Below are positions 707 through 47,702 of a stretch of 64,000 nt of DNA, piece after piece. The stretch is taken from NCBI GenBank assembly GCA_965198225.1, contig CBDAOY010000004.1, forward strand, positions 224,001-288,000. The letters are read 5' to 3'. The stretch's first letter is position 1; each line of letters begins with the position of its first letter. The notes beneath the pieces are model-generated. The model did no database searches. It saw only the letters and a list, made by a program, of their open reading frames with translations, and had not been told where the DNA came from. The position numbers and the translations under genes are program-made. The DNA comes from Terriglobia bacterium. Lineage in GTDB: Bacteria; Acidobacteriota; Terriglobia; 20CM-2-55-15.

Positions 707-3700
707 ATGAGCCTCCACCCGGCAAGACGCGACGAGCCTTTTCGGGCAATCTGCCTGAGACTCCCCGCTTGCCTGTTCCTTCTTTTGTTCCTTTCCGCTG
801 ATGCCTCATCGCAAAGCACCAACACCGGCTACCAGGGGCTCTCCTACACCGAGCGCGGCACGCTCAATGTGCCCGTGCCCGGCGGCGTCCAGGTCAACAC
901 CCATAACGGCAATCTCGTCGTGGGGCGCACCCTTTTCTTGATTCCAGGGATCGGGCTGCCGGTTCAATTTCGACTCACCTACAATTCGGATCATCGCCTG
1001 ATCAGCTCGCCGTTCGGATTCGGCTGGAACCTCTCCTACAACATCCGGTACACGCGGGACACGAGTGGCAATGTAGTGATCGTGTGGGGCGACGGGAGGC
1101 AGGATGGGTTTACCTCCAGCGGGGGGACGTTTACCTCTCCTGCCGGAGTGTACGTGACCTTGACGGAGCCAGTGTCCGGGCAACTGGTTTTGACGACAAA
1201 GCACAGCATCAACTTCAACTTTGCCGACAGCAACCATCAGAAGGTCACCTCGATCAGCGACCCGAACGGGAACAACCTGGCCTTCACCTACGGTGCGGGA
1301 CGGCTCACGACCCTCACCGACGCCGGGGGTAGGAGTTACACCCTGAGTTATGCATTTGACGGGAGGTTGATCCAGCTCTTTGACAACTCTGCGATACGAA
1401 CCTACAGCTTCACGTATGACGCCGCTGGCCGGCTCACGGGCATAACGGACCCCCTCGGGAACCTGGAAGCGTTCAGCTACGATCCGGAGAACCTGCTTAC
1501 AGGGGTAACGGACAGGCGTGGAAACTCGGCGACGATCAGCTATATCACACCAGCGGCGAGCCCCAATACCCGGCTGCCTCAGACTATAGCGAAGGCGGGA
1601 AGCACAACGGGCTTTGCTTACGACGGTTCAATCCTGACCACCACGCTCACCGATCCCAATGGTAACGACTGGACGTACGCCTATGACCCCGGCCGCCTGG
1701 TCCGCGTTGCCGACCCCGCAGGAAATTCCACCGACTTCACCTGGGACGGCAACAACAATCCCTTGACTCAGACGGATCGGAACGGGAACACGTCGACCTT
1801 TGCCTACGATGCGCTGGGGAACGTCCTTACCCGGATGGATGCTCTGGGTAACACGAGCACGTTGACATACGAACCCAGCTTCAACCGGCTGCTGACTTTT
1901 ACCGATCGCACCGGTCACACCTGGAACCATGCATACGATGCCGGCGGCAACGGGACCGGAAGCACCGATCCTCTGGGAAACTCCATTGCCCGGACCTATG
2001 ATGCCGCGGGGCAGATGACGGCGCGGACGGATCGAAGAGGTAACACCACCACTTTCGGTTACGACGCGAACGGAAACCTCAGCCGCGTGACCGACCCTCT
2101 CAATAATCTGACGCAGTTCACCTATGACGCGGGCAGCCGCCTCACGCAGACGACGAATGCCGTGGGCGACGTGACGTCATTCGTCTACGACTCTCTGGAC
2201 CGGCTGACCACAATCACGGACGCCCTAGGGAACAATGATTCTCGGACCTACGATGCCAACGGAAATTTGACCACCTACACCGACTTCCGGAGCAACAGCT
2301 GGACGCGGATCTATGGTGCCTTGAACCGTGAGACCGGCCGGGCCAACCCCACGGGAGGCAACTGGGCGTACGCCTATGACCCGGCGGGCAACCGGATCAC
2401 GCATACCGACGCCAAGGGTCAGGTGACGACCAACACGTTTGATTCCCTCAACCGCCTCGCGGGGCAGGCGTTCGACGATGCCACTGCCGCGACGTACACC
2501 TACGATCCCGTCGGCAACTTGCTCAACGCCGCGGATGCAGGCAGCGACTACGACTACACCTACGACGCCCTGAACCGCACGGCGCAGTTTACCGACAACG
2601 GCTTCACCAAGTCGGTCCTCTACGCCTACGACGCCGTGGGAAGACTCGTTTCCAAGACAGGTCCTGAAGGCGACGTCGCGACCTCCGTCTACGATGCGGC
2701 TGGCCGCCCCGTTACGTTCACCGATCCCACAGGCATCTCCACGATGACTTACGATGCGGAGGGGAACCGCTTGACGGACGCAAGACCCAACGGGGTCACG
2801 ACCACCTCGACCTACGATGCCAACGACCGGCAACTCTCCACGTCCCATGCCAACCTCGGCGGAGCGCTCCAGAGTTTTGCCTACACTCGCGACGGTGCTG
2901 GAAGGGTGACCCAGACGACCCGGGAGACCGGCGAAGTGATCGGCTATACGTACGACGATGCAAGCCGAGTGACTCTGGAGACAGGCGGGCAGGGGGCCCA
3001 GGCCTACAGCCGCACCCAGGAGTTCGACGCCAACGGCAACCGCACGCGCCTGGTCCACACGACGTCCTTCGGCACTTCCGATCAATTTTTCGCTTACGAC
3101 GCCGCCAATCGCGACAGCAACCCTCAGTTTCAGCACGACGCCAACGGCAGCCGGACCGGCGTCTTCGGAAATATCTTTATCTATGACGCCCGCAACCGGC
3201 TCGCTCGCCCGGCAGACCGTAGCACCTACACCTACGACGTCTTCAACCGTTTGATCGCTATCAACAGTCCCTTCAGCGGAACGAAGCGGATCATGTACGG
3301 GAGCAACACAGTGAGCTTGATAGACGCCAACGGCGAGGTGAGGAGGTATGTAGAAGAGGTTCCGTGGGAACGGGAGAGAGCGGTGTTGTTTGCCAGAGGA
3401 GAGGAGTTAGACGAAGCACGTGCGACGGCTCAAGTTATTGACGTGATACTCCCTCTCTTTGGAGCATTCGTTTTGTCCGCACTTGAGGACCATGCTGGTA
3501 GTGTGGCTGAGTTCGAGGCAGACAGGCACTTGCTCAAGAGTTGTCTAACCGAGACCGGTAACACTCAGATCCACACCGGCGACAACCGGGGAGCGGACCT
3601 GCGCTACTCCGCCGGCACCGATGGCATCGGCGCTCGGACCGACGCCGGCACGGTGCACGCCGATGGCGGCACCCGCGGCATCGACCTCCAGTTCGGCAAC

Positions 3701-3916
3701 ATCTCGGAATTTGTGAGTCTCGAGCCCGGCCAGGCGGAGGATTCCGGTAATAGTTTCGTCATCGAGATCGACGGAGCAGTCCTGGATTTCAGCAAGTACG
3801 TGCTGAACCCTGGCGTGACAGAGGGTAATAGCGGAGATTGGCCAGCTTGGGTTCAAGAAGAAACCGGTGGCCATGAAGGTGGACGTATTATTCCGGTGAG
3901 AGGGGATCCGAACTAA
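707..3916 (+). CDS. Secreted YD/RHS-repeat protein with DUF6531-like N-terminal domain
   Basis: Hydrophobic signal (LPACLFLLLFLSADASS), VNTHNGNL...LTYNS...FGFGW segment, dozens of YDxxGRL/DPxGN repeats. Confidence 0.9.
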   Translation: MSLHPARRDEPFRAICLRLPACLFLLLFLSADASSQSTNTGYQGLSYTERGTLNVPVPGGVQVNTHNGNLVVGRTLFLIPGIGLPVQFRLTYNSDHRLISSPFGFGWNLSYNIRYTRDTSGNVVIVWGDGRQDGFTSSGGTFTSPAGVYVTLTEPVSGQLVLTTKHSINFNFADSNHQKVTSISDPNGNNLAFTYGAGRLTTLTDAGGRSYTLSYAFDGRLIQLFDNSAIRTYSFTYDAAGRLTGITDPLGNLEAFSYDPENLLTGVTDRRGNSATISYITPAASPNTRLPQTIAKAGSTTGFAYDGSILTTTLTDPNGNDWTYAYDPGRLVRVADPAGNSTDFTWDGNNNPLTQTDRNGNTSTFAYDALGNVLTRMDALGNTSTLTYEPSFNRLLTFTDRTGHTWNHAYDAGGNGTGSTDPLGNSIARTYDAAGQMTARTDRRGNTTTFGYDANGNLSRVTDPLNNLTQFTYDAGSRLTQTTNAVGDVTSFVYDSLDRLTTITDALGNNDSRTYDANGNLTTYTDFRSNSWTRIYGALNRETGRANPTGGNWAYAYDPAGNRITHTDAKGQVTTNTFDSLNRLAGQAFDDATAATYTYDPVGNLLNAADAGSDYDYTYDALNRTAQFTDNGFTKSVLYAYDAVGRLVSKTGPEGDVATSVYDAAGRPVTFTDPTGISTMTYDAEGNRLTDARPNGVTTTSTYDANDRQLSTSHANLGGALQSFAYTRDGAGRVTQTTRETGEVIGYTYDDASRVTLETGGQGAQAYSRTQEFDANGNRTRLVHTTSFGTSDQFFAYDAANRDSNPQFQHDANGSRTGVFGNIFIYDARNRLARPADRSTYTYDVFNRLIAINSPFSGTKRIMYGSNTVSLIDANGEVRRYVEEVPWERERAVLFARGEELDEARATAQVIDVILPLFGAFVLSALEDHAGSVAEFEADRHLLKSCLTETGNTQIHTGDNRGADLRYSAGTDGIGARTDAGTVHADGGTRGIDLQFGNISEFVSLEPGQAEDSGNSFVIEIDGAVLDFSKYVLNPGVTEGNSGDWPAWVQEETGGHEGGRIIPVRGDPN

Positions 3917-3944: not shown

Positions 3945-6900
3945 GTGCTAACCAATAGTCGCCGGCAAGAGAGAGTCCTGTTCTCATTGCTCCTTGTTTT
4001 CCTTACTACTCCCGCTTTTGCGGGTCAGGGGAGCAATCTGGGCAGTTTCGCCACCAATTTTTCTCCGGCGGTGGTCACCGGGCAGGTGACCAGCGGGGGA
4101 GCTCCGGTGGCCGGTGTGAGTGTCTCCACCATCGCCGGTCATTCGACTACGACGGATGGCGCTGGCGACTATACCCTGCATTTGGACGCCCCCGGGATCT
4201 ACAGCGTAACGGCCCAGACTGCCGCGGAGGTGGCGACGGGGACGGTGGATGTGGCGTTAGGTGCGACGACGACGTTGAACGCCCCCGGGATCTACAGCGT
4301 AACGGCCCAGACTGCCGCGGAGGTGGCGACGGGGACCTGCGACGACGACGTTGAACCTGTCGCTTTCGCCCGACCCCGACGGCGATGGGGTGGGCGACAA
4401 CGCGGACAATTGTCCCTCCGTCGCCAACCCCGATCAGGCCGACGCGGACGGTGACGGTATCGGTGATGCTTGCGATCCCTTCCCCGATGATCCAACTAAC
4501 GGCACGCTCAGCGACGCCTTCCTCGATGCCGTCTTTGCGAACGCTAACGTACCCAATCGCGTGTGTCGGGGAGATGGCACTGGTGGCTTCGCATGCAGTG
4601 ATATCAGCCCGGACACGAACGCCAGCCTCGACGTGACGCTGGGCGACCTGAACGGCGATGCCACCCTCGACGCCGTGTTTGCGAATGCTAACGTACCCAA
4701 TCGCGTCTGTCTGGACGATGGCAGCGGCTTTGCCTGCAGTGATGTCAGCCCGGACACGAATTTCAGCCAAAGCGTGGCACTCGGCGACCTTGACGGGGGC
4801 ACCATCCTCGATGCCGTCTTTGCGAATGTCGGCCTGCGCAATCGCGTCTGTCTGGGCGACGGCAGCGGCGGCTTCGCCTGCAGCGATGTCAGCCTGGACA
4901 CGAACAGGAGCGAAGGCTTGGTACTGGGCGACGTGGACGGCGACGCGAACCTCGATGCCGTCTTCGCGAACAATAACGAAGCTAATCGCGTCTGTCTGGG
5001 CGATGGCAGCGGCGGCTTTACCTGCAGCGATGTCAGCCCGGACACGAACAGGAGCCACCGCGTGGCGTTGGGCGATGTGGACGGCGATGCGAACCTCGAT
5101 GCGGTCTTTGCAAATGACAACCCACCCAATCGGGCGTGTTTGGGCGATGGCAGCGGCGGCTTCACCTGCAGTGACGTCAGCCCGGACCCGAACGGCAGCT
5201 TCGGCGTGGCGCTGGGCGACGTGGACGGGGACGCGAACCTCGATGCTGTCTTTGCGAATAGAACCTCCAACTTACCTAATCGGGTGTGTCTGGGCGATGG
5301 CAGCGGCGGCTTCACCTGCAGCGATGTCAGTGCGGACACGAACACCAGCTTCGGCGTGGGACTGAGCGACGTGGACGGCGATGGCAAGCTCGACGCTGTC
5401 TTCGCAAATACGGAGCAACGCGATCGCGTGTGCCTGGGAGATGGCGTGGGCGGCTTTACCTGCGGCGATGTCAGTGCGGAGACGAACGCCAGTTGGGCGG
5501 TCGCGCTGGGCACGCTGGGTCCCCCTCCCGATGGTGATGACGACGGCGCGGTGGATGCCGTGGACAACTGTCCGGCCATCGCCAATCCGGACCAGGCCGA
5601 CGGCGACGGCGACGGTTTGGGCGATGTCTGTGACCCCTTCCCAAGCGATCCGGCCAACGACGTGGATGGTGATGGGTTAGGCGCCTTTGTGGACAACTGC
5701 CCGGCTATCGCCAACCCCGATCAAGCGGACGCGGACGGCGACGGTTTGGGCGATGTCTGCGATCCCTTCCCCGGCGATCCGGCTAACGACGCGGACGGTG
5801 ATGGGGCAGGCGGTGACGTCGACAACTGCCCGGCCATTGCCAACCCGGACCAGGCTGATGTGGACACCGACGGTGTGGGTGACGTTTGCGATGCGTTCCC
5901 AAACGATCCCGCTAACGGTGCGGGCGGCGACGGCTTCCTCGATATTGTCTTTGGGAACGACAGCCAACCCAATCTCGCGTGCTTCGGCAATGGCGGCGGC
6001 GCATTTGCGTGCAGTGACGTCAGCTCGGAGACAAAAACCAGCTTCGGTGTCGCGCTCGCCGACCTGAACGGCGATGCCATCCTCGACGCTGCCTTCGCGA
6101 ATATCAACCGACCGAATCGCGTGTGTCTGGGCGATGTCACCGGTGGGTTTGCCTGTAGCGATGTCAGCTCGGACGCTAATGACAGCCGCGGCGTGGCGCT
6201 GGGCGACGTGGACGGCGACACTTTCATCGATGCTGTCTTTACGAATATCAACCAGCCGAATCGCGTGTGTCTGGGCGACGGCACCGGCGGTTTTGTCTCG
6301 TGCAGCGATGTCAGTTCGGACGCGAACACCAGCACGGGCGTGGCGCTGGGGGACGTGGATGGCGATGCCGTCCTCGATGCCGTCTTTGCGAACAGCGTCC
6401 AGCCCAATCGCGTGTGCTTGACCGATGGCGTCGGCGGCTTTGCGTGCAGCGATATAAGCCCGGGTGCGAAGGGTAGCCGCGGTGTAGCGCTGGGTGACGT
6501 GAACGGCGATGCCGTCCTCGATGCTGTCTTTGCGAATTTCAACCAGCCCGATCAGGTGTGTCTGGGCAATGGCAGCGGCGGCTTTACGTGCAGCGATGTC
6601 AGTTCGGGTGTGGATGCCAGCACAGGTGTGGCGCTGGGCGACGTGAACGGCGATGCCATCCTCGACGCTGTCTTTGCGAATTTCCACCAACCAAATCAGG
6701 CGTGTCTCGGCGACGGCAGTGGTGGCTTTGCGTCGTGCAGTGATGTCAGCCCGGTTGCGAAGGGTAGCCGCAGCGTGGCGCTGGGGGACGTGGACGGCGA
6801 TGCCAACATGGATGCTGTATTTGCGAATTTCAGCCGACCCAATGATGTGTGTCTGAGCACCAATCGTGTGTGTTTGGGCGATGGCGCTGGCGGCTTTGTG

Positions 6901-9217
6901 TCGTGCAGTGAAGTCGTACCGGACACGAGCCCCAGCGGATCCGAGTTCCCCAGCGTAGACGTGGCGCTGGGTACGCTGGGCGCTGCTCCCAGTGATGCTG
7001 ATGACGACGGCGTGGACGGTGCCGTTGACAACTGCCCGTTTGATGCCAACCCGAACCAGGTCGACGCCGACGGCGACGGCGTTGGCGACGTTTGCGATAA
7101 CGCTCCCAACACTCCCAACCCGGGCCAGGCGGATGGTGACGCGGACGGCATCTTTGCGACGTGATGGCGCGGGCGGCTTTGCAGCTCGGACACGAACAAC
7201 TGCCCGGTGGGCAACGGCGGCGATGCTTGCGAACCCGGATCAGGCGGATGCGGACGGCGACGGGGCGGGCAACGTCTGCGATGGCTTCCCCAACGATCCG
7301 ACCGACGATGCGGACAGTGATGCCACCCTGGATGCGGTCTTCGCGAATGTCGGTCAACCCAGCCGGGTGTGTGAGAGCGCCGGCGCCGGTGGCTTTACCT
7401 GTAGCGATGTCAGCCTGGATGTGAATGACAGTGTCGATGTGGCGCTGGGGGACGTGAACGGCGACACCTTCCTCGATGCAGTCATCGCGAACGACAGCCA
7501 GCCCAATCGTGTGTGTCTGGGTGATAGCAGCGGGGGCTTCAGCTCGTGCAGCGATGTCAGCCCGGACGGGAACTTCAGCTTCGGTGTGGCGCTGGGGGAC
7601 GTGAACCGCGACGGCGCGGTCGATGCGGTCATTGCGAATGCGACGCAACCCGATCGTGTGTGTCTGGGCGACGGTGCCGGCGGCTTCGTGTGTGGTGATG
7701 TCAGCTCGGATACGAACAACAGCAACGGTGTGGCGTTGGGGGACGTGAACGGCGACACCTTCCTGGACGCCGTCTTGGCGAGCTTTCCCAATCGTGTGTG
7801 TTTGGGCGATGGCGCCGGCGGCTTCGCGTGCGGTGATGCCAGCTCGGATACGAACAGCAGCAACGGTGTAGCGCTGGGCGACGTGGACGGCGATACCATT
7901 CTCGATGCTGTCTTTGCCAATCAAAACCAGCCCAATCGAGTGTGTCTGGGGGATGGCGCGGGCGGCTTTGCGTGCAGTGATGTGAGCTCGGACACGAACG
8001 TCAGCCTCGGCGTGGGGCTGGGCGATGTGAACAACGACACCATCTTTGATGCTGTCTTCGTGAATGACCGCCAACCCAATCGCGTGTGTCTGGGCAACGG
8101 CGCCGGCGGGTTTACCTGCAGTGATGTCAGCCCGGATGCGAGCGCCGGCCGCAGCGTGGCGCTGGGCAGGTTGGGTGCCAACGTGGACAACTGTCCGGCC
8201 ATCGCCAACCCGGATCAGGCGGATGCGGACGGCGACGGCGTGGGCGATGTCTGCGACAACGATGTCGTCCTCGGCACTGGCGGCGGGACAGTTACGGATC
8301 CGGCTGGCTCGGGTGCTACCTTTAGCGTGGGCGCTGGTGTCCTGCCAGGGAACACCCAAGTGTTCATCGACGTGATTCCTGATCCTGGCGTCTCGACGCC
8401 ACCAGGGTTCATCGGACCGGCAACGCTGTTTGTGAACTTTACCCTGGTCCCGAACCCCAGTTCCTTGCCTCCTCCGGGAGCGACCATCACACTGCCCCTT
8501 GCCTTTCCGCTTCCCGACGGGACTCCCGTGCCGCTGTTCGAATTCGACCCGCCGACGGGCACGTTGATCGATACAGGGATCGTCGGATCAGTGGATCCGA
8601 GCACTAGCACCGCCACCTTCAGCGGCGTCACTGATTTCTCCGTGTTCGTCGGCCTTGCGGGGTTTGTGCCTTTCTCCGCCTTCGATCCCGAAGTTGAAAT
8701 CGATGACGATGAACTTGAAGTGAAAGGCAGTTTCACTCTCGGGACTGGGAGTGACGGCATCGATCCGATCAACGAAGTTGTCACCATTGAAGTGGGGGCC
8801 TTCAGCGCGACGATCCCGGCGGGCTCATTTGAATCGGACGGTTCCGGACCCTTTGGAGCGGCCGAGTTCGAAGGTGTCATCGACGGCGTGAGAATGAAGT
8901 TCGAGATTCGAAAGGGCGGGGGCGACAGCTTCGGGTTCGAGGTCGAGGGGAAAGATACGGATCTGGGCGGGACCGTCAATCCCGTAGAAATCATACTCAT
9001 CATCGGCGATGACAGGGGAAGTGGAAGCGTCAGCGCCGAGATCGACCTCAAGTCTGAGAAATCCGACAAGTCCGACAAGTCCGACAAATCGGACAAGTCT
9101 GCCAAGTCGGACAAGTCTGCTAAGTCTGGCAAGTCCGGCAAGTCGACCAAATCTGGCAAATCGGGCAAGTCTGGCAAGTCTGGCAAGTCGGGAAAATCCG
9201 GCAAGTCTGGCCAATAG
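3945..9217 (+). CDS. Giant secreted repeat protein (carboxypeptidase-regulatory-like Ig domain, TSP3 Ca-binding repeats, FG-GAP/VCBS-like propellers, C-terminal domain with (KSx)n tail); split into ORFs 3945-4454, 4351-7164, 6992-9217
   Basis: Signal peptide only in first ORF; DNCPxxANPDQADxDGDGxGDxCD and ALGDVDGDxxLDAVFAN repeats in second and third; removing duplicated 4281-4356 fuses ORF1 to ORF2 in frame; scrambled junction near 7150-7230. Confidence 0.75.
4186..4356 (+). repeat. Imperfect tandem duplication causing frameshift
   Basis: 4186-4243 repeated at 4279-4336 and 4262-4280 repeated at 4338-4356; net 76 bp extra. Confidence 0.9.
9050..9214 (+). repeat. 9-bp coding repeat, 18 x Lys-Ser-x
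   Basis: KSE KSD KSD KSD KSD KSA KSD KSA KSG KSG KST (KSG)x7 Q-stop with mixed synonymous codons. Confidence 0.95.
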
Positions 9218-9323
9218 AAATCTGTCTCGAATTGTCGTTGATTGATCGCGAGTTGATCGCGCTCCAGGAGCCGGGGCGGGACAGTAATGGACAATCCGAA
9301 GAACTGACGGAAAGAGCCGAGCC

Positions 9324-9612
9324 TTAACCTTTAGGTTTTTCCACTTCTTGAGCCCCGTGCCAAACGGCAACAATCCAAGCCGTGTTCTTCTCGACGCGAT
9401 AGAAGAAACGGTATGGGCTGATCACTACTTCGCGGTGGGGCAGCTCGGGAGATTCTGGCAGCACCCGGCCGGAATCGGTATTTCTCGAGTCGTCTCAAGA
9501 TCCGTTCGGCTCGGTCGCGAAACTTCCTCGCGGCTCCGGGCTTGTCCTTTTGGATGTAGGCCAGTCCTTCGAGAAACTGACGCCGTGCCGAGGGCGTAAA
9601 GCGGATTCTCAC
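9324..9612 (-). pseudogene. RelE/ParE-family toxin, frameshifted near 9477
   Basis: N-half MRIRFTPSARRQFLEGLAYIQKDKPGAARKF...LEKY; C-half in another frame DSGRVLPESPELPHREVVISPYRFFYRVEKNTAWIVAVWHGAQ to TAA 9324; downstream of antitoxin. Confidence 0.8.
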
Positions 9613-9614
9613 AG

Positions 9615-9890
9615 CTACCCATTCTTGAGCAATCTATCCGCGTCCCGCAGAACACTGTCAAGGGAATGCCCCTTACCTTCCCCCACCTCCTTCTCGCCCT
9701 GAGCCAGTAGACGAAGCAGTTCATTCTCTCTCTGGGAACGCTCGTAGGCCTCGACACTGAGCAGGACGGCCGTTGCTCGTCCTCGCTGCGTGATTACGCA
9801 GGGCTCATCAGAGTTTTGGATCTCGTCTAACAGAGACGCGGCATCCTGCCGGAGATCAGTGATCGGTACGATCTTGGGAACCCTAGCCAT
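9615..9890 (-). CDS. Phd/YefM-family antitoxin
   Basis: IVPITDLRQDAASLLDEI...PCVITQRGRATAVLLSVEAYE; GGAGG RBS. Confidence 0.92.
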   Translation of the reverse strand: MARVPKIVPITDLRQDAASLLDEIQNSDEPCVITQRGRATAVLLSVEAYERSQRENELLRLLAQGEKEVGEGKGHSLDSVLRDADRLLKNG

Positions 9891-39942: not shown

Positions 39943-40542
39943 ATGGATCGACTCCAATTCCGCATTGCGGGCCTGACCCGCCGTCGGGCGAGGCGCTTCC
40001 AACAGCTCACGCGGCCGGCTGCGATCCAGCCTGTCCCCCTGGCGACAATCGGACTGGGGGCCAAGGGCCTCATTCTTGCGCCGTTGATCGTCGTGGCTGC
40101 TTCGGGGCTGTTTGAACCGACCCCCGTCCTTGTCGCACCCGGCATGCCGATTCGGGCGCGGGAAGTCATTGTGCTGCGCGACACAAGCGGTTCCATGGAC
40201 GACTTCGTTCCACAAACACAAACGGCGTTGAACAGGCTTCGCGCGACCGGGCGGTGGGATGGGACTTGGGTTGAGATCTTCGGTTCTGCAGACGGGATTC
40301 TGGAAAAGATCACTAGCGAATTGGCCGATCAGCCCGGCGCTGATGCCGTCTGGATCGTATCCGACTTCCACGACGGGACTGACCTAGTCAACGGTGAGGA
40401 CACCAGACGCTACGACCAACTGCTCCGCCTGCTTCTCGACAGAAGGGTCCGGCTCTACCTCAGTACGGTGAGCCGCGAACCTCCCCCCGATCAGATTCAG
40501 GCGGCCCTGCGATCACACGGAAGCTGGCGCAAGTTCGAGTAG
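39943..40542 (+). CDS. Hypothetical protein with vWA-like domain
   Basis: VLRDTSGSM (DxSxS) and WIVSD motifs. Confidence 0.6.
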   Translation: MDRLQFRIAGLTRRRARRFQQLTRPAAIQPVPLATIGLGAKGLILAPLIVVAASGLFEPTPVLVAPGMPIRAREVIVLRDTSGSMDDFVPQTQTALNRLRATGRWDGTWVEIFGSADGILEKITSELADQPGADAVWIVSDFHDGTDLVNGEDTRRYDQLLRLLLDRRVRLYLSTVSREPPPDQIQAALRSHGSWRKFE

Positions 40543-40586
40543 CCCTCGCCGTGAACTGACATCGTGACTCTAAGGAGGTGTAACCC

Positions 40587-41050
40587 ATGGACTTCGACCC
40601 CATACGCGCCATTGCCATGATCCTGATCGGGTCGTTCGCGATCGACCGCGTCGTTACCGGGCTTTTCTTCCTGCTCTCCTACGATCCCGACCTGCGCAAG
40701 TCGTTGGATCCGTCGTCGGTCACGGATCCCCGGGAGCAGGCCGAGGCGATGAGGAACTACAAGTTGCTCTACGCCATTCTCGGAGGGTATCTGGGCACCG
40801 TCGTCATTGCCGGCTACATGAACATCCGGCTCTTTGCCTCGACGGTGGTACCCGGTAGCGAGTTCATCGGAGACTATCCCCTGCTCGACATCTTCCTGAC
40901 CGGCCTGGTTCTGCTCGGCGGAGCCGATCGCCTGGCGGAGGCCCTGAAGATGCTCGGTGGTTCGGGGGTTCCCGCTAGCAGGATACTCCGCTCGAGATCA
41001 GCGGAAAGCTGGTCGTGGAGCAGTCGACGACGCGAAGCGACAACGCCTAG
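40587..41050 (+). CDS. Hypothetical membrane protein, probable frameshift near 40977
   Basis: AAGGAGG RBS, three TM segments; alternative frame QDTPLEISGKLVVEQ ends TAG 41050, avoiding overlap with the opposite gene. Confidence 0.65.
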
Positions 41051-41063
41051 TCGAGACAGTTTT

Positions 41064-41650
41064 CTATTCTCCCGACTTGCCCGACTTGCCGGATTTGTCC
41101 GATTTGCCGGATTTCGCTGACTTGCCCGACTTGTCTGATTTGCCGGACTTGCCCGATTTTTCCGACTTATCCGATTTGGCCGACTTGTCGGACTTCTCCG
41201 ACCGGCCGTCGATCGCGGCAGTGACGCTTTCGGTTCCCCGGTCATCGCCGACGATCAGCGTGATTTCTGCTGGATTGACCGCAAAAAATCACCCGCATTC
41301 AGCCCGCCGGTAAAGCCTCCTTGAGTATTGGATATTTTCTGCTCCGAAGCGACCGTTCCGTTGGCGTTCATGAAGAGGATCCAGACTGCGCCGCTTTGTG
41401 GACCAAGGTCATCGTCGTTGTTTGCTCCCACCGCCAGATCCGTGACACCGTCGCCATTCAGGTCGCCGAGGTTCGCCACCGAGGCACCAAAAGCGTCGAA
41501 GTCGTCCAGCGTTCCAACGAAGTTTCCCGCTAAATCCGATATCTTTTGTTGCGAACTTACCGTCGTTGCGGCCTCCGCCCACCTGGTGGTTCCTGCCACA
41601 AGCATTCCTGTCACCAACACCGCTGCTGCCACAGTTTCTGCGCGCTTCAT
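41064..41650 (-). pseudogene. Internally deleted secreted FG-GAP (integrin-like) protein with (KSx)n tail
   Basis: Signal plus FGASVANLGDLNGDGVTDLAVGA...GAVWILF joined out of frame near 41283 to AVNPAEITLIVGDDRGTESVTAAIDGRSE(KSx)14E-stop. Confidence 0.82.
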
Positions 41651-41805
41651 GACACCCTCCCGGACCTTTTTGGTGCCCTACTCTACATCCGTGCCTTCGC
41701 AACCGGACAAAAAAAGCTCTTCGGGGATTGTCATTGTGGCGCGATCTTCTCCCTCAGCCCCATGTGGCCTGATTCCTTAATTAGATTAACGGCGAGAAAC
41801 CGCTT

Positions 41806-43212
41806 CTAGCCGGGTTCTGCCGCGGCCGCGAGCCGGTCCAGAACGTGATCCTGGATCCATTTCGGATCCCACCATTCGATGGGGTTGACGGGGACGCCGT
41901 GGAGGAACAGGCCGAAGTGCAGGTGGTCTCCGCCGGCAAGGCCGGTGGCTCCGCTGCGGCCGAGGATCTCCTCTTTCCCGACCATCTGTCCGACCTCGAC
42001 ATCGATCGAGCTCATGTGGGCATACAGGGAAACCAGGCCGGCGCCATGGTCGATGGCAACCGAGTTGCCGTAGATGCCGAAGTAATCGGCGAGGATCACC
42101 CTGCCCGCATTGGCGGCTTCGATGGGGTAGCGTTGGACGACCGACAGGTCGAAGCCGACGTGATCCTGCCGATCGACCTCTTCACCCTGGTACATGTAGG
42201 TCCGCCGGTCGGCGAAGGAGGATTCCACCTGTGAGTTGCTCAGCTGCAGGAACGCACCCTCCCAGAGAAGGCGCTCCTCCGATTGCTTTGAGATTTCCGC
42301 CAGTGTTTCGTGATTTTCCCGCCGAAGCCGGCTGTTGATCTCCACGTAGGTATCGATGAGCTCTCCCTGGTCCCGAACCCCGGGGGTACGGCTGACGATT
42401 TCCGGGACGACTTTCTGGAGAAAGGTGTCGGACAACACGATCTGCCGCCGTCTGAATTCGCGGGGCGTCACGCGGTGACCGATCCCGGCCGTAGACTGGT
42501 TCCCGGCCGCGTCGCGGGCGACGAGTTGAACCGGGGTGTCGGCCGGGAGATCGTATGCGAAGGCGAAAAGCGCGAAGCGCAGTTCCGGATCGGCAGGATC
42601 AACCGGGAGACCCGGGAAGAAGTGTGGGCCGACCTGAATGCCGGAGGCCTCCGCGTCGTCCGACACCCGGTAGAGGGCGCACTCGGACCCGCCCTGGTTG
42701 ATGTAGTGCAGCCCGGATAGTGCTTCGAGCCGGGGCGGGTAGATGTCGAACACGAATTCGCGGGTCATCTCGGTTTGGTTCCCGCTGCCGAAGCCGCGTA
42801 GCGCGTAATCGGCCGCGCTGACGCTCAGGCGGGCCGGTCCATCCTGAACCTGGTACTTCTCGGTGATCAGCATCCCGATGTCGTAGGTCCTGGACTTCTC
42901 CGTTCCGGTTCTCCACAGCGCCAACGCTCCCGGCCCGTCGAACGATTCTTCGACGAGGACGACTTCGCCGTCGTCCTGCGCCAGGACGACGCGCACCTTT
43001 TTCAGGCCACTTGCGGGGTCTTCCACTGTCAGTGCGAGGGCGGGGGTCCGGCCAAGGGCTTCGAATTCCCGGTCGAACAGGACCCGGGGCTCCCGGCTCT
43101 CCAGGCGCGGGTAACCCAGCGCGACTACGACCACGAGGGCCAGGGTTGCGGCGACACCCAGTCGGACAATCAGGGTCTTGCTTGAGAGGGCCGGCTTCGT
43201 GTGTCTGATCAT
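41806..43212 (-). CDS. M23 family metallopeptidase
   Basis: HVGFD, YAH, HLHF motifs; N-terminal TM. Confidence 0.93.
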   Translation of the reverse strand: MIRHTKPALSSKTLIVRLGVAATLALVVVVALGYPRLESREPRVLFDREFEALGRTPALALTVEDPASGLKKVRVVLAQDDGEVVLVEESFDGPGALALWRTGTEKSRTYDIGMLITEKYQVQDGPARLSVSAADYALRGFGSGNQTEMTREFVFDIYPPRLEALSGLHYINQGGSECALYRVSDDAEASGIQVGPHFFPGLPVDPADPELRFALFAFAYDLPADTPVQLVARDAAGNQSTAGIGHRVTPREFRRRQIVLSDTFLQKVVPEIVSRTPGVRDQGELIDTYVEINSRLRRENHETLAEISKQSEERLLWEGAFLQLSNSQVESSFADRRTYMYQGEEVDRQDHVGFDLSVVQRYPIEAANAGRVILADYFGIYGNSVAIDHGAGLVSLYAHMSSIDVEVGQMVGKEEILGRSGATGLAGGDHLHFGLFLHGVPVNPIEWWDPKWIQDHVLDRLAAAAEPG

Positions 43213-43292
43213 GCGACATTCCTACCAGAGCGGGGGATCGATTCTGGTCCCTTTAGGGTATGATCCTCTGACACTTACATGGGAGGGATGAC

Positions 43293-44534
43293 ATGCGGTG
43301 GAATGTGTTCATCGTCGCAGCGGTACTTGGCTTGATCGTGGGTTGGGGCCCCCCGGCAGCGGCCGGACAGGCGCCGGGAGCCCAGGCCGCCGAGCAGGAA
43401 GACCCGGTGGCGGAGCTTGTCGGGCGATTGAGCCTCGAAAGTTACAAGGAAACGCTCCGGGGACTGGCTCAGTTTGGCGACCGCCGGCAGGGCACGGATC
43501 GGAACCGGGCCGCGGTCGACTGGATCGAGCAACAGCTCGAAAGCTTCGGTTGCTCGACTGACAGGATCCACTACGAGTACAACCCGACACCCCGTAGGGG
43601 CGGAGGCGGAGGTCGTGGACGTCGTCCCACGCGGGATCCCGTGATCGCCAGCGGGGAGATCCGCAACGGTCCGGGCGGGTCCCGGTACTACGGCATCACG
43701 CGGCGGACGGGCGTGAACAACGACGCTGACGCCCAGCCGGACGAAAGGCTCCGTGAGCTCAACCGGCAGCCGACGACCCCCGGCGCGCGCGAAGAAGTCT
43801 ACTGCACGAAGGTCGGTTCGACCCGCCCGGACGAGATGTACATCATCGGCGCGCACATGGATGGACACGGCTGGGGCGAGGCCCTGAACGACAACGGGTC
43901 GGGGACCGCACTGGTGATCGAGCTCGCACGCGTCCTGAACATGCCCGACGTCGAGACCGAACGGACGATTCGGTTCGCTCTGTGGAACAACGAGGAAACC
44001 GGTCTGAACGGTTCCCGAGCCTATGTGGAACAGCGTGCGGAACTCCAGGGCATCGAAAACCCGCCTGGGTCGGGACGGTTTCCAGAACCAAACTGGATCG
44101 GAATGATCCAGCACGACATGATGATGTGGGACCATGGCATGCCTCGTGTGGACGGCACGTGGAACCCGGAGCAGCGACCCGAAGCCGACGTCAACATCGA
44201 ATTCCAATCCAATTCAAAGTTCTCCGATCGGGCGATGAGGCTCGCGTTCTTCTTCCGCGCCGCCAACGAGCAGTACGCCACGGATTATCCGGCGGCGGTC
44301 GGGCCTCACATGACCAACACCGACTCGACGCCATTCATGAACCTGGTCCCATCGATCAGCCTTCGTGAAAACGAGCGCGGGATGCACACCGGGGCTGGAT
44401 GGAACCCGACCTGGCATCAGCCGATCGATGTGTTCCCCACGTTCAGCGACAAAGACTTTCGGCTCGGGCTGAATGCCGCGCAGACGACGCTGAGCGCCGT
44501 CAGCCAACTGGCAGGTGCGACGCCGAAGCAATAG
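43293..44534 (+). CDS. M28 family peptidase, secreted
   Basis: IIGAHMD, NDNGSGTA, NEETGLNGS, WHQPID. Confidence 0.9.
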   Translation: MRWNVFIVAAVLGLIVGWGPPAAAGQAPGAQAAEQEDPVAELVGRLSLESYKETLRGLAQFGDRRQGTDRNRAAVDWIEQQLESFGCSTDRIHYEYNPTPRRGGGGGRGRRPTRDPVIASGEIRNGPGGSRYYGITRRTGVNNDADAQPDERLRELNRQPTTPGAREEVYCTKVGSTRPDEMYIIGAHMDGHGWGEALNDNGSGTALVIELARVLNMPDVETERTIRFALWNNEETGLNGSRAYVEQRAELQGIENPPGSGRFPEPNWIGMIQHDMMMWDHGMPRVDGTWNPEQRPEADVNIEFQSNSKFSDRAMRLAFFFRAANEQYATDYPAAVGPHMTNTDSTPFMNLVPSISLRENERGMHTGAGWNPTWHQPIDVFPTFSDKDFRLGLNAAQTTLSAVSQLAGATPKQ

Positions 44535-44727
44535 GCGACGACACGCCTTCCGGCGCCAAATCAGGGTGGCAGTAACCTCGCGCGTTCGCGAGACGTAGTC
44601 AATAGGGGAGCCACAGAGACGTTTTTACAAACCTTAACCGGACGACGCTTGAAATCGGGATCACGAGCATGCTTCTCTCAGAAGGTGCTCCTTCTTTGTC
44701 GTGTCTTGTGTTCGAGCGCGCCTGTGG

Positions 44728-45477
44728 ATGAGTAACGTCACCACAACCGAGACCCGCAGCAGCGGTTTTGAAATCAAGTTCGTTCTCGACGCGCCGGTCG
44801 CCGAGGGTATTGTCGATTGGGCGCGCGCCAACCTGAAGCCCGATCCCCACGCTTCGGGCCCCTGGGGTGACGAGTACCTCACCACAAACCTCTACTTCGA
44901 CACCGACGCTTTCGACACCTTCCATCGCCGCGGTTCCTACGGCCGTGCCAAGTATCGCACCCGCCGCTACGGCGACGACGAGAGCCTTTTCCTGGAGCGC
45001 AAGTTGAGGAAGGCCGAGCGCGTGAACAAGCGGAGAACGAAGGTTCGCGTCGACGAGATGAGCCGGCTCAACGGAAGCGAGAGGGTGTCGGGGTGGGCTG
45101 GCAAGTGGTTCCACCGTCGCTTGCGGCTGCGGAGTCTTCAGCCCGTGTGTCAGGTTGCCTACCGGCGGATGGCGCGTGTCGCCACCGGGGTGCACGGACC
45201 GATCCGTCTCACGGCCGACCGCGACATCCGCGTCTGGCCGACCAGGGAGCTGACCTTCGTCAACGGCACCGGGAGGCCGATCGAAGAGTCGAAGGTCCTG
45301 GTCGAGTTCAAGTTCGCCGTCGCCATGCCTGCACTGTTCGAGGAACTCGTCGAAGATTTCAAACTGGAACCGGTGCAGGTGTCGAAGTACCGCGTGGGCG
45401 TCGGTGCGCTCTACGGGCTCGAAGACTCCGCCGACGCCGAGCTGGTGCGCGACGTCGGAGGTTCTGGCGATGCCTGA
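44728..45477 (+). CDS. VTC domain (polyphosphate polymerase-like) protein
   Basis: EIKF, LYFDT, KYRTRRY, LERK, YRRMA, IRLTAD, VEFKF, SKY. Confidence 0.92.
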   Translation: MSNVTTTETRSSGFEIKFVLDAPVAEGIVDWARANLKPDPHASGPWGDEYLTTNLYFDTDAFDTFHRRGSYGRAKYRTRRYGDDESLFLERKLRKAERVNKRRTKVRVDEMSRLNGSERVSGWAGKWFHRRLRLRSLQPVCQVAYRRMARVATGVHGPIRLTADRDIRVWPTRELTFVNGTGRPIEESKVLVEFKFAVAMPALFEELVEDFKLEPVQVSKYRVGVGALYGLEDSADAELVRDVGGSGDA

Positions 45478-46168
45478 GTTCCTGCGGGCACAGTTTGAGG
45501 GAGGGTTTGCGTTGTCGCCCCTTACTGTCGCCGTTCGGCTCGTCGCGGCGATGGTCCTGGGCGGTGTCGTTGTGTTCGTCTACAGACGCACCCGGGCGGC
45601 CGAAGATGTCGTTCCGTCGTTTACGACGACGTTGCTGCTTCTTGCGATTCTTATCGCGATGGTGACGCAGGTGATCGGCGACAACGTGGCCCGTGCGTTC
45701 AGTCTCGTCGGCGCCCTGTCCATCGTCCGGTTTCGTACGGTTGTTCGAGACACGCAGGATACCGCTTACGTCATTTTCGCCGTCGTCGTCGGTATGGCCG
45801 CGGGCGCCGGCGATCCGTGGGTGGCCGGGATCGGAATCTTCATCGTATCGTTTGCCGCCTACCTGGCGCGCAGCTCGCAGGGAGCTCCTGTGATACAGGC
45901 GATCGAGGGCGGGGAGACATGCACACTCAAGCTGAAGGTTGGGCTCGGACACGATGTGAACCGAGGGGTCGTTCCCGTCATCGACGAGCATCTCTCCGGG
46001 CGACGCCTCAAATCGATGGGAACGTCGGCGGAAGGCTCGGCCATCGATGTCGCTTACGAGGTGGACCTTCCGGCGGACGATTCCGCCGAGGCGTTGATCA
46101 AAGCACTGAACCAGCTGGACGGCGTACAGAACGTGCAAATACAGCGTCGCAAACCAAAGGGGAATTGA
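45470..46168 (+). CDS. DUF4956 family membrane protein
   Basis: VIGDNVARAFSLVGALSIVRFRT...GMAAGAG; overlaps VTC stop. Confidence 0.92.
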   Translation: MPEFLRAQFEGGFALSPLTVAVRLVAAMVLGGVVVFVYRRTRAAEDVVPSFTTTLLLLAILIAMVTQVIGDNVARAFSLVGALSIVRFRTVVRDTQDTAYVIFAVVVGMAAGAGDPWVAGIGIFIVSFAAYLARSSQGAPVIQAIEGGETCTLKLKVGLGHDVNRGVVPVIDEHLSGRRLKSMGTSAEGSAIDVAYEVDLPADDSAEALIKALNQLDGVQNVQIQRRKPKGN

Positions 46169-46181
46169 GGAGGGCAAGACT

Positions 46182-47702
46182 ATGAAAGCACTCGCCGGCT
46201 TCATCGCGGCATCGACCGCCTGTTTCGCCGTGATTGCGATCACCCACGGATCTACCGCCGAGCTAACGCAGCGGGCCGGTCGAGGCCGAGGAGGCGGCGA
46301 TCCCACTGCCGGTCTGGTCGAGTTGGAGATCGTCGACCGGTTCGACACGGATGGCGATGGCATGCTGAATACCGAAGAACGCGTTCCAGCCCGTGAGTTC
46401 ATGGCGAGTCAACCCGCCCGGCGCGGCCCCCGGGGGGATCGCCCGCCGGCGCCCGAACCCGGCGCCATGCTGTCACCGGAAGATGTGACGATCTATGACA
46501 ACGAGCCGCTCTACGACATGTCGGTGCTGCGCACCCTGTTCTTCGAATTCGAGAGCGAGGAGTGGGAGGATGAACTCGGCGTGTTCCGGTTCTCGGACGT
46601 CGAGATACCCGCCACCCTGAGGGTCGACGGCGGGGTCTACAACGATGTCGGCGTCTCGTTCCGGGGCGCGTCGTCGTACTTCACGGTGTGGCCGGGACTC
46701 AAGCGTTCACTGAACGTGTCGCTCGATCTGGTGCTTGGTGATCAGCGGCTCGCCGGCCACCGCACGCTGAACCTGCTCAACTCGCACGCAGACCCGACGT
46801 TTCTGCGTTCCGTGCTCTGCTTCGAAGTATCGCGCGACTACCTGCCGGCTCCGAGGGCCAACTTCGTACGGGTGGTCATCAACGGCGAAAGCTGGGGCGT
46901 GTACGTGAACTCCGAACAGTTCAACAGCGATTTCGTGCGCGATTCCTTCCAGACCAGAGGCGGCGCCCGCTGGAAAGTGAAGGGCAATCCTCGTGGCGGA
47001 CGTGGCCTCGAATACTTCGGCCCCGACGTCGCCGCTTACAAGCGTGTGTACGATATCAAGACGAAGGACGATCCGGATTCCTGGACCGACCTCATCGAGC
47101 TGACTCGTGTGTTGAACGAGACGCCGCCGGAGGGGCTTGAAGCCGCCCTCGATCCTATACTCGACATTGACGGGGTCCTGAAGTTTCTCGCCCTGGACGT
47201 CGTGCTCCTCAACGGCGATGGATACTGGACCCGGGCGAGCGATTACAACATCTATCAGGATCCGGACGGGCGGTTCCACCTGGTTCCTCACGACGCCAAC
47301 GAGACATTCCGTGTCCCCGGGGTCGGGGGGCGTGGTGGGGCAGGCGGCCGGGGCCCCCGCGGAGGGTTTCGCGGCCGCGGTGGGAGAGGGGGTCGCGTCG
47401 GCCCACGGGCGACCATCGATCTCGATCCTCTCGTCGGCCTCGACGACGCGGGCAAGCCGCTACGCTCGAAACTGTTGGCTGTACCGGCCCTGCGGGAACG
47501 GTATTTGGGTTACGTGCGTGACATCGCGACGAAGTGGCTCGACTGGGAGAAGCTGGAACCGATCATCGAGCGCTACCGCGCAATCATCGCTGCCGACGTG
47601 GAGGCCGACACCCGCAAGCTTTATAGCCTCGAAGATTTCCAGCGGGGTGCTGAAGCCTTCAAGAGCTTCGCCGAACAGCGGCGGGCCTTCCTTCTCAAGT
47701 AG
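46182..47702 (+). CDS. CotH kinase family protein, secreted, with EF-hand
   Basis: VGVSFRGASS, KRSLNV, LNLLN, INGESWGVY..SEQ, NGDGY...DYNIY, PHDANETF; DTDGDGMLNTEE. Confidence 0.92.
   Translation: MKALAGFIAASTACFAVIAITHGSTAELTQRAGRGRGGGDPTAGLVELEIVDRFDTDGDGMLNTEERVPAREFMASQPARRGPRGDRPPAPEPGAMLSPEDVTIYDNEPLYDMSVLRTLFFEFESEEWEDELGVFRFSDVEIPATLRVDGGVYNDVGVSFRGASSYFTVWPGLKRSLNVSLDLVLGDQRLAGHRTLNLLNSHADPTFLRSVLCFEVSRDYLPAPRANFVRVVINGESWGVYVNSEQFNSDFVRDSFQTRGGARWKVKGNPRGGRGLEYFGPDVAAYKRVYDIKTKDDPDSWTDLIELTRVLNETPPEGLEAALDPILDIDGVLKFLALDVVLLNGDGYWTRASDYNIYQDPDGRFHLVPHDANETFRVPGVGGRGGAGGRGPRGGFRGRGGRGGRVGPRATIDLDPLVGLDDAGKPLRSKLLAVPALRERYLGYVRDIATKWLDWEKLEPIIERYRAIIAADVEADTRKLYSLEDFQRGAEAFKSFAEQRRAFLLK

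Follow-up and report, generated by a model that had tools for sequence, protein, structure and literature searches.

What does a strictly phased Lys-Ser-x (KSx) repeat do at the end of a bacterial protein? Two such tracts occur in a 64,000-nucleotide stretch of a Terriglobia bacterium genome (contig CBDAOY010000004.1), hereafter the window, whose positions 1–64,000 supply all coordinates below unless another contig is named. A first-pass annotation, made from the sequence alone, took the two tracts for an undescribed C-terminal sorting, anchoring or modification tag on two different secreted proteins. The reading favored here, with a probability of roughly 0.55, is that the KSx tract is a position-independent, disordered and lineage-restricted Lys/Ser module of exported proteins, that it is not a sorting signal, and that its role is presumably physical.

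Copy 1 of the tract (9050–9211, plus strand) consists of 18 unbroken Lys-Ser-x units followed by Gln and a stop codon (9212–9217), and the C-terminal end of its open reading frame (ORF), 6992–9217, reads ...VNPVEIILIIGDDRGSGSVSAEIDL(KSx)18Q-stop. Copy 2 (41070–41195, minus strand) has 14 units followed by Glu and a stop codon, and the minus-strand frame 41288–41067 reads FFAVNPAEITLIVGDDRGTESVTAAIDGRSE(KSx)14E-stop. Both tracts are present as first described. Tandem Repeats Finder assigns them a 9-bp period, with 18.1 copies at 77% matches in copy 1 and 13.9 copies at 73% in copy 2; at these percentages, the repeats are diverged rather than fresh. Among relatives, tract lengths of 18, 14, about 9 and about 7 units occur. 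AlphaFold2 models the tail of copy 1 with a pLDDT of ~60 and no secondary structure, and the net charge counted from the tract sequences ranges from about 0 to about +11.

Codon usage within the tracts was tallied over 82 units from nine tracts in three genomes. Lysine is encoded by AAG in 62 units and AAA in 20, serine by TCC (37), TCG (24), TCT (13), TCA (4), AGC (2) and AGT (2), while the x position holds Gly (34), Asp (21), Glu (11), Lys (5), Ala (4), Asn (4), Ser (2) or Thr (1), and in no unit a hydrophobic residue. The units were selected by a KS regular expression, which makes the conservation of Lys and Ser in this set partly built in. Three features are independent of that choice, namely the unbroken 18-unit run, the frequent changes at third codon positions, and the use of both TCN and AGY codons for serine within one tract, and because of them the tracts appear to be under selection as protein sequence. 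When all six frames were scanned for (KS.){3,}, counting open frames of 80 aa or more, seven matches emerged in the window's own genome (G000; 6.41 Mb, nine contigs, 60% G+C) and none in the reversed genome. The tracts are real and shaped by protein-level selection, and the synonymous variation on which the first-pass annotation had based the same view is borne out. Its further claim, that x drifts from Asp/Glu proximally to Gly distally, describes copy 1, whose distal part reads (G-K-S)n with Gly at x in 9 of the 18 units; the trend is weak in copy 2 and absent from a tract on contig C7 of the same genome and from P0001, an intact 908-aa relative from another assembly. A collagen Gly-X-Y assignment (PF01391) was rejected given this 9/18 share of Gly and a weak match (E 0.0021, 18.2 bits against a cut-off of 27.2). 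No earlier description of the tails emerged in the sources searched: Pfam and NCBIfam contain no family naming KSx tails, five literal tail strings have no match in the text of the papers searched, and a keyword search for Lys-Ser tails on proteins that bacteria secrete turned up nothing relevant among the papers listed, as judged from titles and abstract openings.

The carriers of the module show how variable its placement is. By its sequence, the contig C7 gene is a real second carrier, intact and outside the window. It encodes 1533 aa with a signal-peptide-like N-terminus (judged by inspection, as for all carriers), a DUF7948 domain, SBBP repeats and propeller-type matches below the Pfam cut-offs, and ends in a ~129-aa domain, shared with copy 1, and the tail DDDD(KSx)5-ESG-(KSx)6-KGGED. 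On contig C9 of G000, one tract lies right behind a signal peptide and another forms a 3-unit C-terminal tail, and the carrier on contig C5 has a Lys-rich C-terminus. An S8 peptidase on contig C8 (L002:3350–6061, plus strand) has the tract as a hypervariable K/S-rich insertion in a surface loop behind the catalytic His region. All five intact carriers of G000 have signal-peptide-like N-termini. Related genomes add further contexts. In G020, a tract immediately follows the signal peptide of a GDPD-family enzyme and a 12-unit tail ends a protein behind a weak Big_1-like domain; in G002, a tract serves as the internal linker of a large protein. Orthologues of the S8 peptidase occur in G002, G012 and G020, and their loops differ in length and character: 25 aa in G002 and 48 aa in G020, both KS-rich like the 27 aa of G000, 19 aa and degenerate in G012, and an ordinary 10–11 aa in the distant orthologues of G005, G047 and G049. 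The S8 peptidase gene of G002 lies ~3.6 kb from another KSx-bearing gene.

The distribution of the module is narrow. A DNA pattern for six units matches three of 34 genomes of the family (G000, G002 and G020) and none in the reversed control. In an evenly drawn sample of 401 genomes of the phylum, G000 among them, it matches three, and the two besides G000 bear different repeats, KS[R/G] and KSC. Only about seven loci per genome carry a tract. Gene neighborhoods were compared for the carriers on contigs C7 and C8, for the two window copies and for two G020 carriers, and no partner gene recurs among them.

In the window, copy 1 of the tract is preceded by an unnamed C-terminal beta-sandwich domain of ~129 aa (8663–9049, plus strand). 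AlphaFold2, run on a 32-row alignment, predicts its residues 1–128 with pLDDT above 90 and nine beta strands. The domain has no match in Pfam or NCBIfam, nor did a scan of 32 aligned members find one. Foldseek returned no match to the domain model at E ≤ 1e-3, a profile search of PDB sequences returned nothing below E 0.088, and the best VIA structural match (Z 7.3) falls within the range the tool calls "common" and is to a generic Ig-like sandwich. A tblastn search of G000 with the domain detects two full copies, the one in the window and the one on contig C7 (L001:5586–5981, minus strand; 41% identity, E 6e-22), together with a 24-aa fragment at copy 2; every other match has E of at least 0.2.

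An exhaustive phmmer search of 1.84 billion representatives identified homologues of the domain in 1888 representative clusters at E ≤ 1e-3 and in 946 at E ≤ 1e-10. Among the best 150 of the 1888, the protein ends within 5 aa of the domain in 115, and the domain is followed by an Asp/Glu-rich tail in 12, a His/Asp-rich tail in three, another short extension in 13, further domains in four, and a KSx tail in three (P0001, P0090 and P0102). Homologous domains thus usually lack the tail, 147/150 being without KSx and 115/150 without any tail, a pattern the first-pass annotation had itself named as telling against its tag. The N-terminal partners of the domain are varied and include FG-GAP, SBBP, Kelch, Laminin_G_3, lactonase-type propellers and DUF7948. 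Of the homologues, 110 representatives begin with Met and extend at least 45 aa ahead of the domain, and 61 of these contain a signal-like stretch by a crude hydrophobicity criterion; many of the others may be fragments. A quick maximum-likelihood tree built from 153 rows of the domain places the six copies with KSx tails in two clades, each with 100% SH-aLRT support. One unites window copy 1, P0001 and P0151 (a second intact relative of the copy 1 architecture from another assembly, 1068 aa with a 7-unit tail), and the other the contig C7 copy, P0090 and P0102. The two clades are not sisters as drawn, with an unresolved backbone, and both lie among acid-tailed subfamilies. Despite the two clades, the KSx-tailed copies may have a single origin.

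The first-pass annotation saw two different secreted proteins with different N-terminal repeats and a common ~130-aa module. Comparison with P0001 gives another picture. What the two window copies have in common is confined to the final 24 aa of the domain and the tail (71% identity). The two are paralogues with a single architecture, that of P0001, and their N-terminal parts do not differ in type. Judged from their reading frames, both lie in damaged genes, copy 1 cut off from its signal peptide and copy 2 reduced to a deletion remnant.

ORF 6992–9217 (plus strand) encodes FG-GAP_3 repeats, a TSP3 unit, an unnamed middle domain, the C-terminal domain and the tail, and from 7253 on its protein is 69% identical to residues 370–908 of P0001. 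The ~135-aa stretch ahead of the domain (8258–8660; VVLGTGGGTVTDPAGSGATFSVGAGVLPGNTQVFIDV...) has no family match and is conserved in P0001 and P0151. The copy 1 ORF lacks a signal peptide, and its opening ~87 codons overlap ORF 4351–7164 (plus strand) out of frame; the overlapped ORF encodes TSP_3 and FG-GAP_3. The signal-peptide-like N-terminus closest to copy 1, followed by CarboxypepD_reg, belongs to ORF 3945–4454 (plus strand), which is out of frame with the copy 1 ORF, and the claim that copy 1 is secreted does not hold for the gene as it stands. The frame breaks near 4300–4360, where the break is not at a homopolymer, and within 7130–7262, where more than one change of frame occurs. Taken together, the reading frames indicate that the pieces at 3945–7164 and ORF 6992–9217 (3945–9217 overall) are probably one broken gene. 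At 4200–4360, a 19-aa segment (APGIYSVTAQTAAEVATG) is present twice, 12 aa apart, and its second copy bears the indel that shifts the frame between ORF 3945–4454 and ORF 4351–7164.

The tail of copy 2 stands in a minus-strand frame of 74 codons (41067–41288) that opens right after a stop codon, lacks a start codon and covers the domain's final 24 aa and the tail, 72% identical to residues 856–908 of P0001. Upstream of it, in a different frame, ORF 41255–41650 (minus strand, 131 codons) encodes a signal-peptide-like N-terminus and an FG-GAP repeat and is 93% identical (114/123) to residues 1–123 of P0001. The two meet at a junction that reads T TTT TTG (41282–41288, minus strand), with a T6 run at 41283–41288; the tail frame is shifted by -1 relative to the upstream ORF, which ends nine codons past the junction with a stop at 41255. 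The tail of copy 2 is accordingly not the C-terminus of a protein. Because the flanks match residues 1–123 and 856–908 of P0001, ~730 codons have been lost and the ends joined out of frame. Copy 2 (41067–41650) is, on these matches, a deletion remnant of a gene of the 908-aa type. Logan contigs of three studies (X1, X3 and X5), one of which is possibly the assembly's own source, show 0 differences and 0 gaps against 40500–42000 (X5 to 41932). The junction at 41283–41288 is not an assembly slip, because the contigs of the three studies are identical there. The contigs come from studies bearing three different coded organism labels and agree letter for letter over this 1.5 kb, which suggests a very uniform population.

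With the window copies set in this context, the preferred reading can be stated in full. The KSx tract would be an intrinsically disordered, very hydrophilic segment, coded by diverged 9-bp repeats and confined to a few related genomes of one family, which probably belongs to the Acidobacteriota. It would be attached to exported proteins wherever a free end or a surface loop tolerates it, whether behind a signal peptide, within the loop of a peptidase or at the end of a terminal domain. In the window it follows a widespread domain that normally ends proteins and whose related subfamilies bear poly-Asp/Glu or His/Asp tails instead. Such a flexible charged appendage may act as a spacer, as a solubilizing brush, or by electrostatic contact with polymers of the envelope or matrix. 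Repeat slippage would alter its length, while selection would hold Lys and Ser in phase and exclude hydrophobic residues. Several observations weigh against this proposal. The spread of tract charges from about 0 upward means that a simple polycation anchor does not fit all tracts, and the strict conservation of the K-S phase would equally suit recognition by an enzyme. The length of copy 2 is invariant in the three contig sets, and ongoing slippage is not demonstrated. Furthermore, because both window copies are disrupted, any function in G000 rests on the carriers of contigs C7, C8, C5 and C9.

The module belongs with the known low-complexity repeat regions of exported proteins. In staphylococcal Clf and Sdr proteins, Ser-Asp (R) repeats form an internal stalk before an LPXTG anchor, are glycosylated, and vary in length between strains. 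KSx tracts resemble them as short-period, slippage-prone and disordered repeats of exported proteins, with Ser as a possible modification site. They differ in forming free tails, N-terminal caps and loop insertions, in having Lys in every unit, and in having no anchor. Diatom silaffins, which the first-pass annotation also invoked, are eukaryotic, heavily modified, silica-precipitating peptides that are Lys/Ser-rich and charged, with KxxK spacing. KSx tracts have these three compositional traits in common with them, without homology and with nothing tying KSx to minerals.

A neutral origin is the first alternative to weigh, in which repeat slippage would have generated the tracts as functionless by-products within surface-protein genes that evolve fast and are partly decaying. 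The disruption of both window genes, the lack of a tract in nearly all of the domain homologues (147/150) and the degenerate S8 loop of G012 would all be expected under this view. So would the K-S/T-D/E low-complexity stretches seen in unrelated proteins of other phyla, one of them a small zinc-ribbon protein that by inspection lacks a signal peptide. Slippage alone accounts poorly for the divergence of the repeats (73–77% matches), with changes concentrated at synonymous sites and Ser encoded by both TCN and AGY, for the seven matches against none in the reversed genome, for the exported appearance of every intact carrier, and for the retention of the insertion at the same S8 loop in two genera. 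Neutrality is considered unlikely.

A second alternative arises from a gene set near copy 2, made up of VTC (a polyphosphate polymerase domain; 44701–45477), DUF4956 (45404–46168) and a CotH-family kinase (46182–47702; PF08757, E 2.8e-43), all on the plus strand. The window CotH contains an EF-hand-like DTDGDG motif and a Gly/Arg-rich insert, and an M23 peptidase gene (minus strand) and an M28 peptidase gene (plus strand) occupy 41806–44534, between copy 2 and the set. In Bacillus, CotH phosphorylates the Ser/Lys-rich repeats of the spore proteins CotB and CotG, and by analogy the window CotH is a candidate modifier of KSx tracts. Under this reading, the exported kinase would phosphorylate the Ser of each unit and turn the tract into a dense phosphoserine/lysine polyampholyte, as in the CotH–CotB/CotG system. 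The signal-peptide-like N-terminus of the kinase, its presence in all three KSx-bearing genomes and the strictly maintained K-S phase are consistent with such a role. Likewise, KSx tracts and the SKR regions of CotB and CotG (CotH substrates in Bacillus subtilis) are alike as disordered tandem repeats rich in Ser and Lys/Arg, and the genome that carries KSx also encodes, in this window, a CotH-family protein.

The differences are equally clear, however. KSx is a strict tripeptide with Gly, Asp or Glu at x and almost no Arg, whereas the SKR-G unit spans 5–7 aa; its carriers have signal-peptide-like N-termini for Sec export and are not spore-coat proteins; and intact carriers are not clustered with a kinase in the manner of cotB, cotG and cotH. 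CotH occurs in 18 of the 34 family genomes, including 15 of the 31 without KSx, and with three tract-bearing genomes to compare, no specific co-occurrence is seen. Of the carriers, the broken copy 2 alone is close to the kinase gene (~5 kb); the others are 37 kb away or on other contigs. Moreover, the CotH/polyphosphate-polymerase/DUF4956 set is described as accompanying Pel polysaccharide loci in Gram-positive bacteria, with no known role given (10.1101/768473). Phosphorylation of the tracts is therefore improbable, if worth keeping in view.

Less probable again is the broader proposal, drawn from the same analogy, that K-S-x tracts constitute the substrate code of an exported CotH-family kinase, in a secreted-phosphoprotein system whose modules would be polyphosphorylated outside the cytoplasm. 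If it were true, exported enzymes and adhesins bearing the modules at their ends or in loops would have their charge, or their binding to matrix, metals or minerals, adjusted by polyphosphorylation, in parallel with Fam20C substrates in animals and with CotB and CotG in spores, and sister domains with acidic or His/Asp tails would possess a genetically hard-wired equivalent. Through this lead, it could be tested cheaply whether CotH-type kinases also act on repeats of this sort in bacteria that do not form spores.

The C-terminal tag with which the inquiry began, a dedicated sorting or anchoring signal read by a processing machine, is highly improbable. Several exported proteins do end in the tail, and in two clades a conserved terminal domain precedes it. 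A sorting tag would, however, be expected at a constant position, with an enzyme that reads it and a large set of substrates, and none of these is seen. The module is also found at the N-terminus of mature proteins, within the loop of an enzyme, as an internal linker and behind an unrelated Ig-like domain; its length and sequence vary; carriers per genome are few and most domain homologues are without it; and no neighboring gene recurs. LPXTG- and PEP-CTERM-type signals combine a motif, a hydrophobic helix and a basic cluster, whereas the KSx tails end in ...KSGQ, ...KSGE or ...KGGED, and inspection of both window tail ends found no hydrophobic stretch, LPXTG or PEP motif, in agreement with the first-pass annotation. 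A sorting tag would have meant a new secretion or anchoring system, and the evidence speaks against it.

Two further secretion routes were considered and rejected. The ~129-aa domain resembles the C-terminal domain of type IX secretion system (T9SS) substrates in being all-beta and in forming the very C-terminal end of a wide variety of exported repeat and propeller proteins. The Por_Secre_tail model, however, matches neither the window protein nor the 32 aligned domain members, the domain has no family match of its own, and in P0092, another protein found with the domain among the homologues, it precedes a separate and true T9SS Por_Secre_tail. Because of this arrangement, the domain is probably a passenger and not a T9SS-type signal. 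A type I secretion substrate was rejected given the signal-peptide-like N-termini of the intact carriers and the lack of any RTX family match.

The remaining alternative, that copy 2 is still made as a ~195-aa secreted FG-GAP protein with a KSx tail by programmed -1 ribosomal frameshifting at U UUU UUG, is a long shot: the X XXY YYZ heptamer is perfect in the zero frame, the -1 frame is open through the tail, the junction is identical in the contigs of three studies and the downstream RNA has a predicted fold of -56.8 kcal/mol (z -3.3), but the motif sits exactly at a deletion scar, where chance is the simpler explanation, the hairpins are placed unlike those of known cases (the main one begins ~25 nt downstream and the first takes in the heptamer itself), and U UUU UUG is not known as an efficient slippery site in bacteria.

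Several features surround these genes. Directly upstream of the broken FG-GAP/TSP3 gene, a 1069-aa ORF (707–3916) is RHS/YD-repeat-like by eye and has a signal-peptide-like N-terminus. Directly downstream of copy 1, the minus strand (9331–9890) encodes a Phd/YefM-type antitoxin (9615–9890) followed by a 93-codon ORF without a family match; the pair is probably a toxin–antitoxin system. On the plus strand, an ORF of 177 codons (40587–41120) that encodes hydrophobic segments and matches no Pfam family overlaps the opposite-strand tail of copy 2 by ~55 bases. Elsewhere in G000, 30 ADOP-family permease matches exceed the curated cut-off, compared with none in 14 control genomes, and many fragments of the family are also present. 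Two sponge-metagenome RNA runs share about 0.1 of sampled words, from which no inference on habitat or expression is drawn.

Besides the kinase lead, the analysis leaves two elements of general interest. One is a widespread terminal beta-sandwich domain without a name in Pfam or NCBIfam, which merits a family model. The other is the KSx module itself: in the preferred reading, a strictly phased Lys-Ser tripeptide repeat would be a movable part on the exported proteins of a small lineage, and may help explain how low-complexity tails arise and persist.

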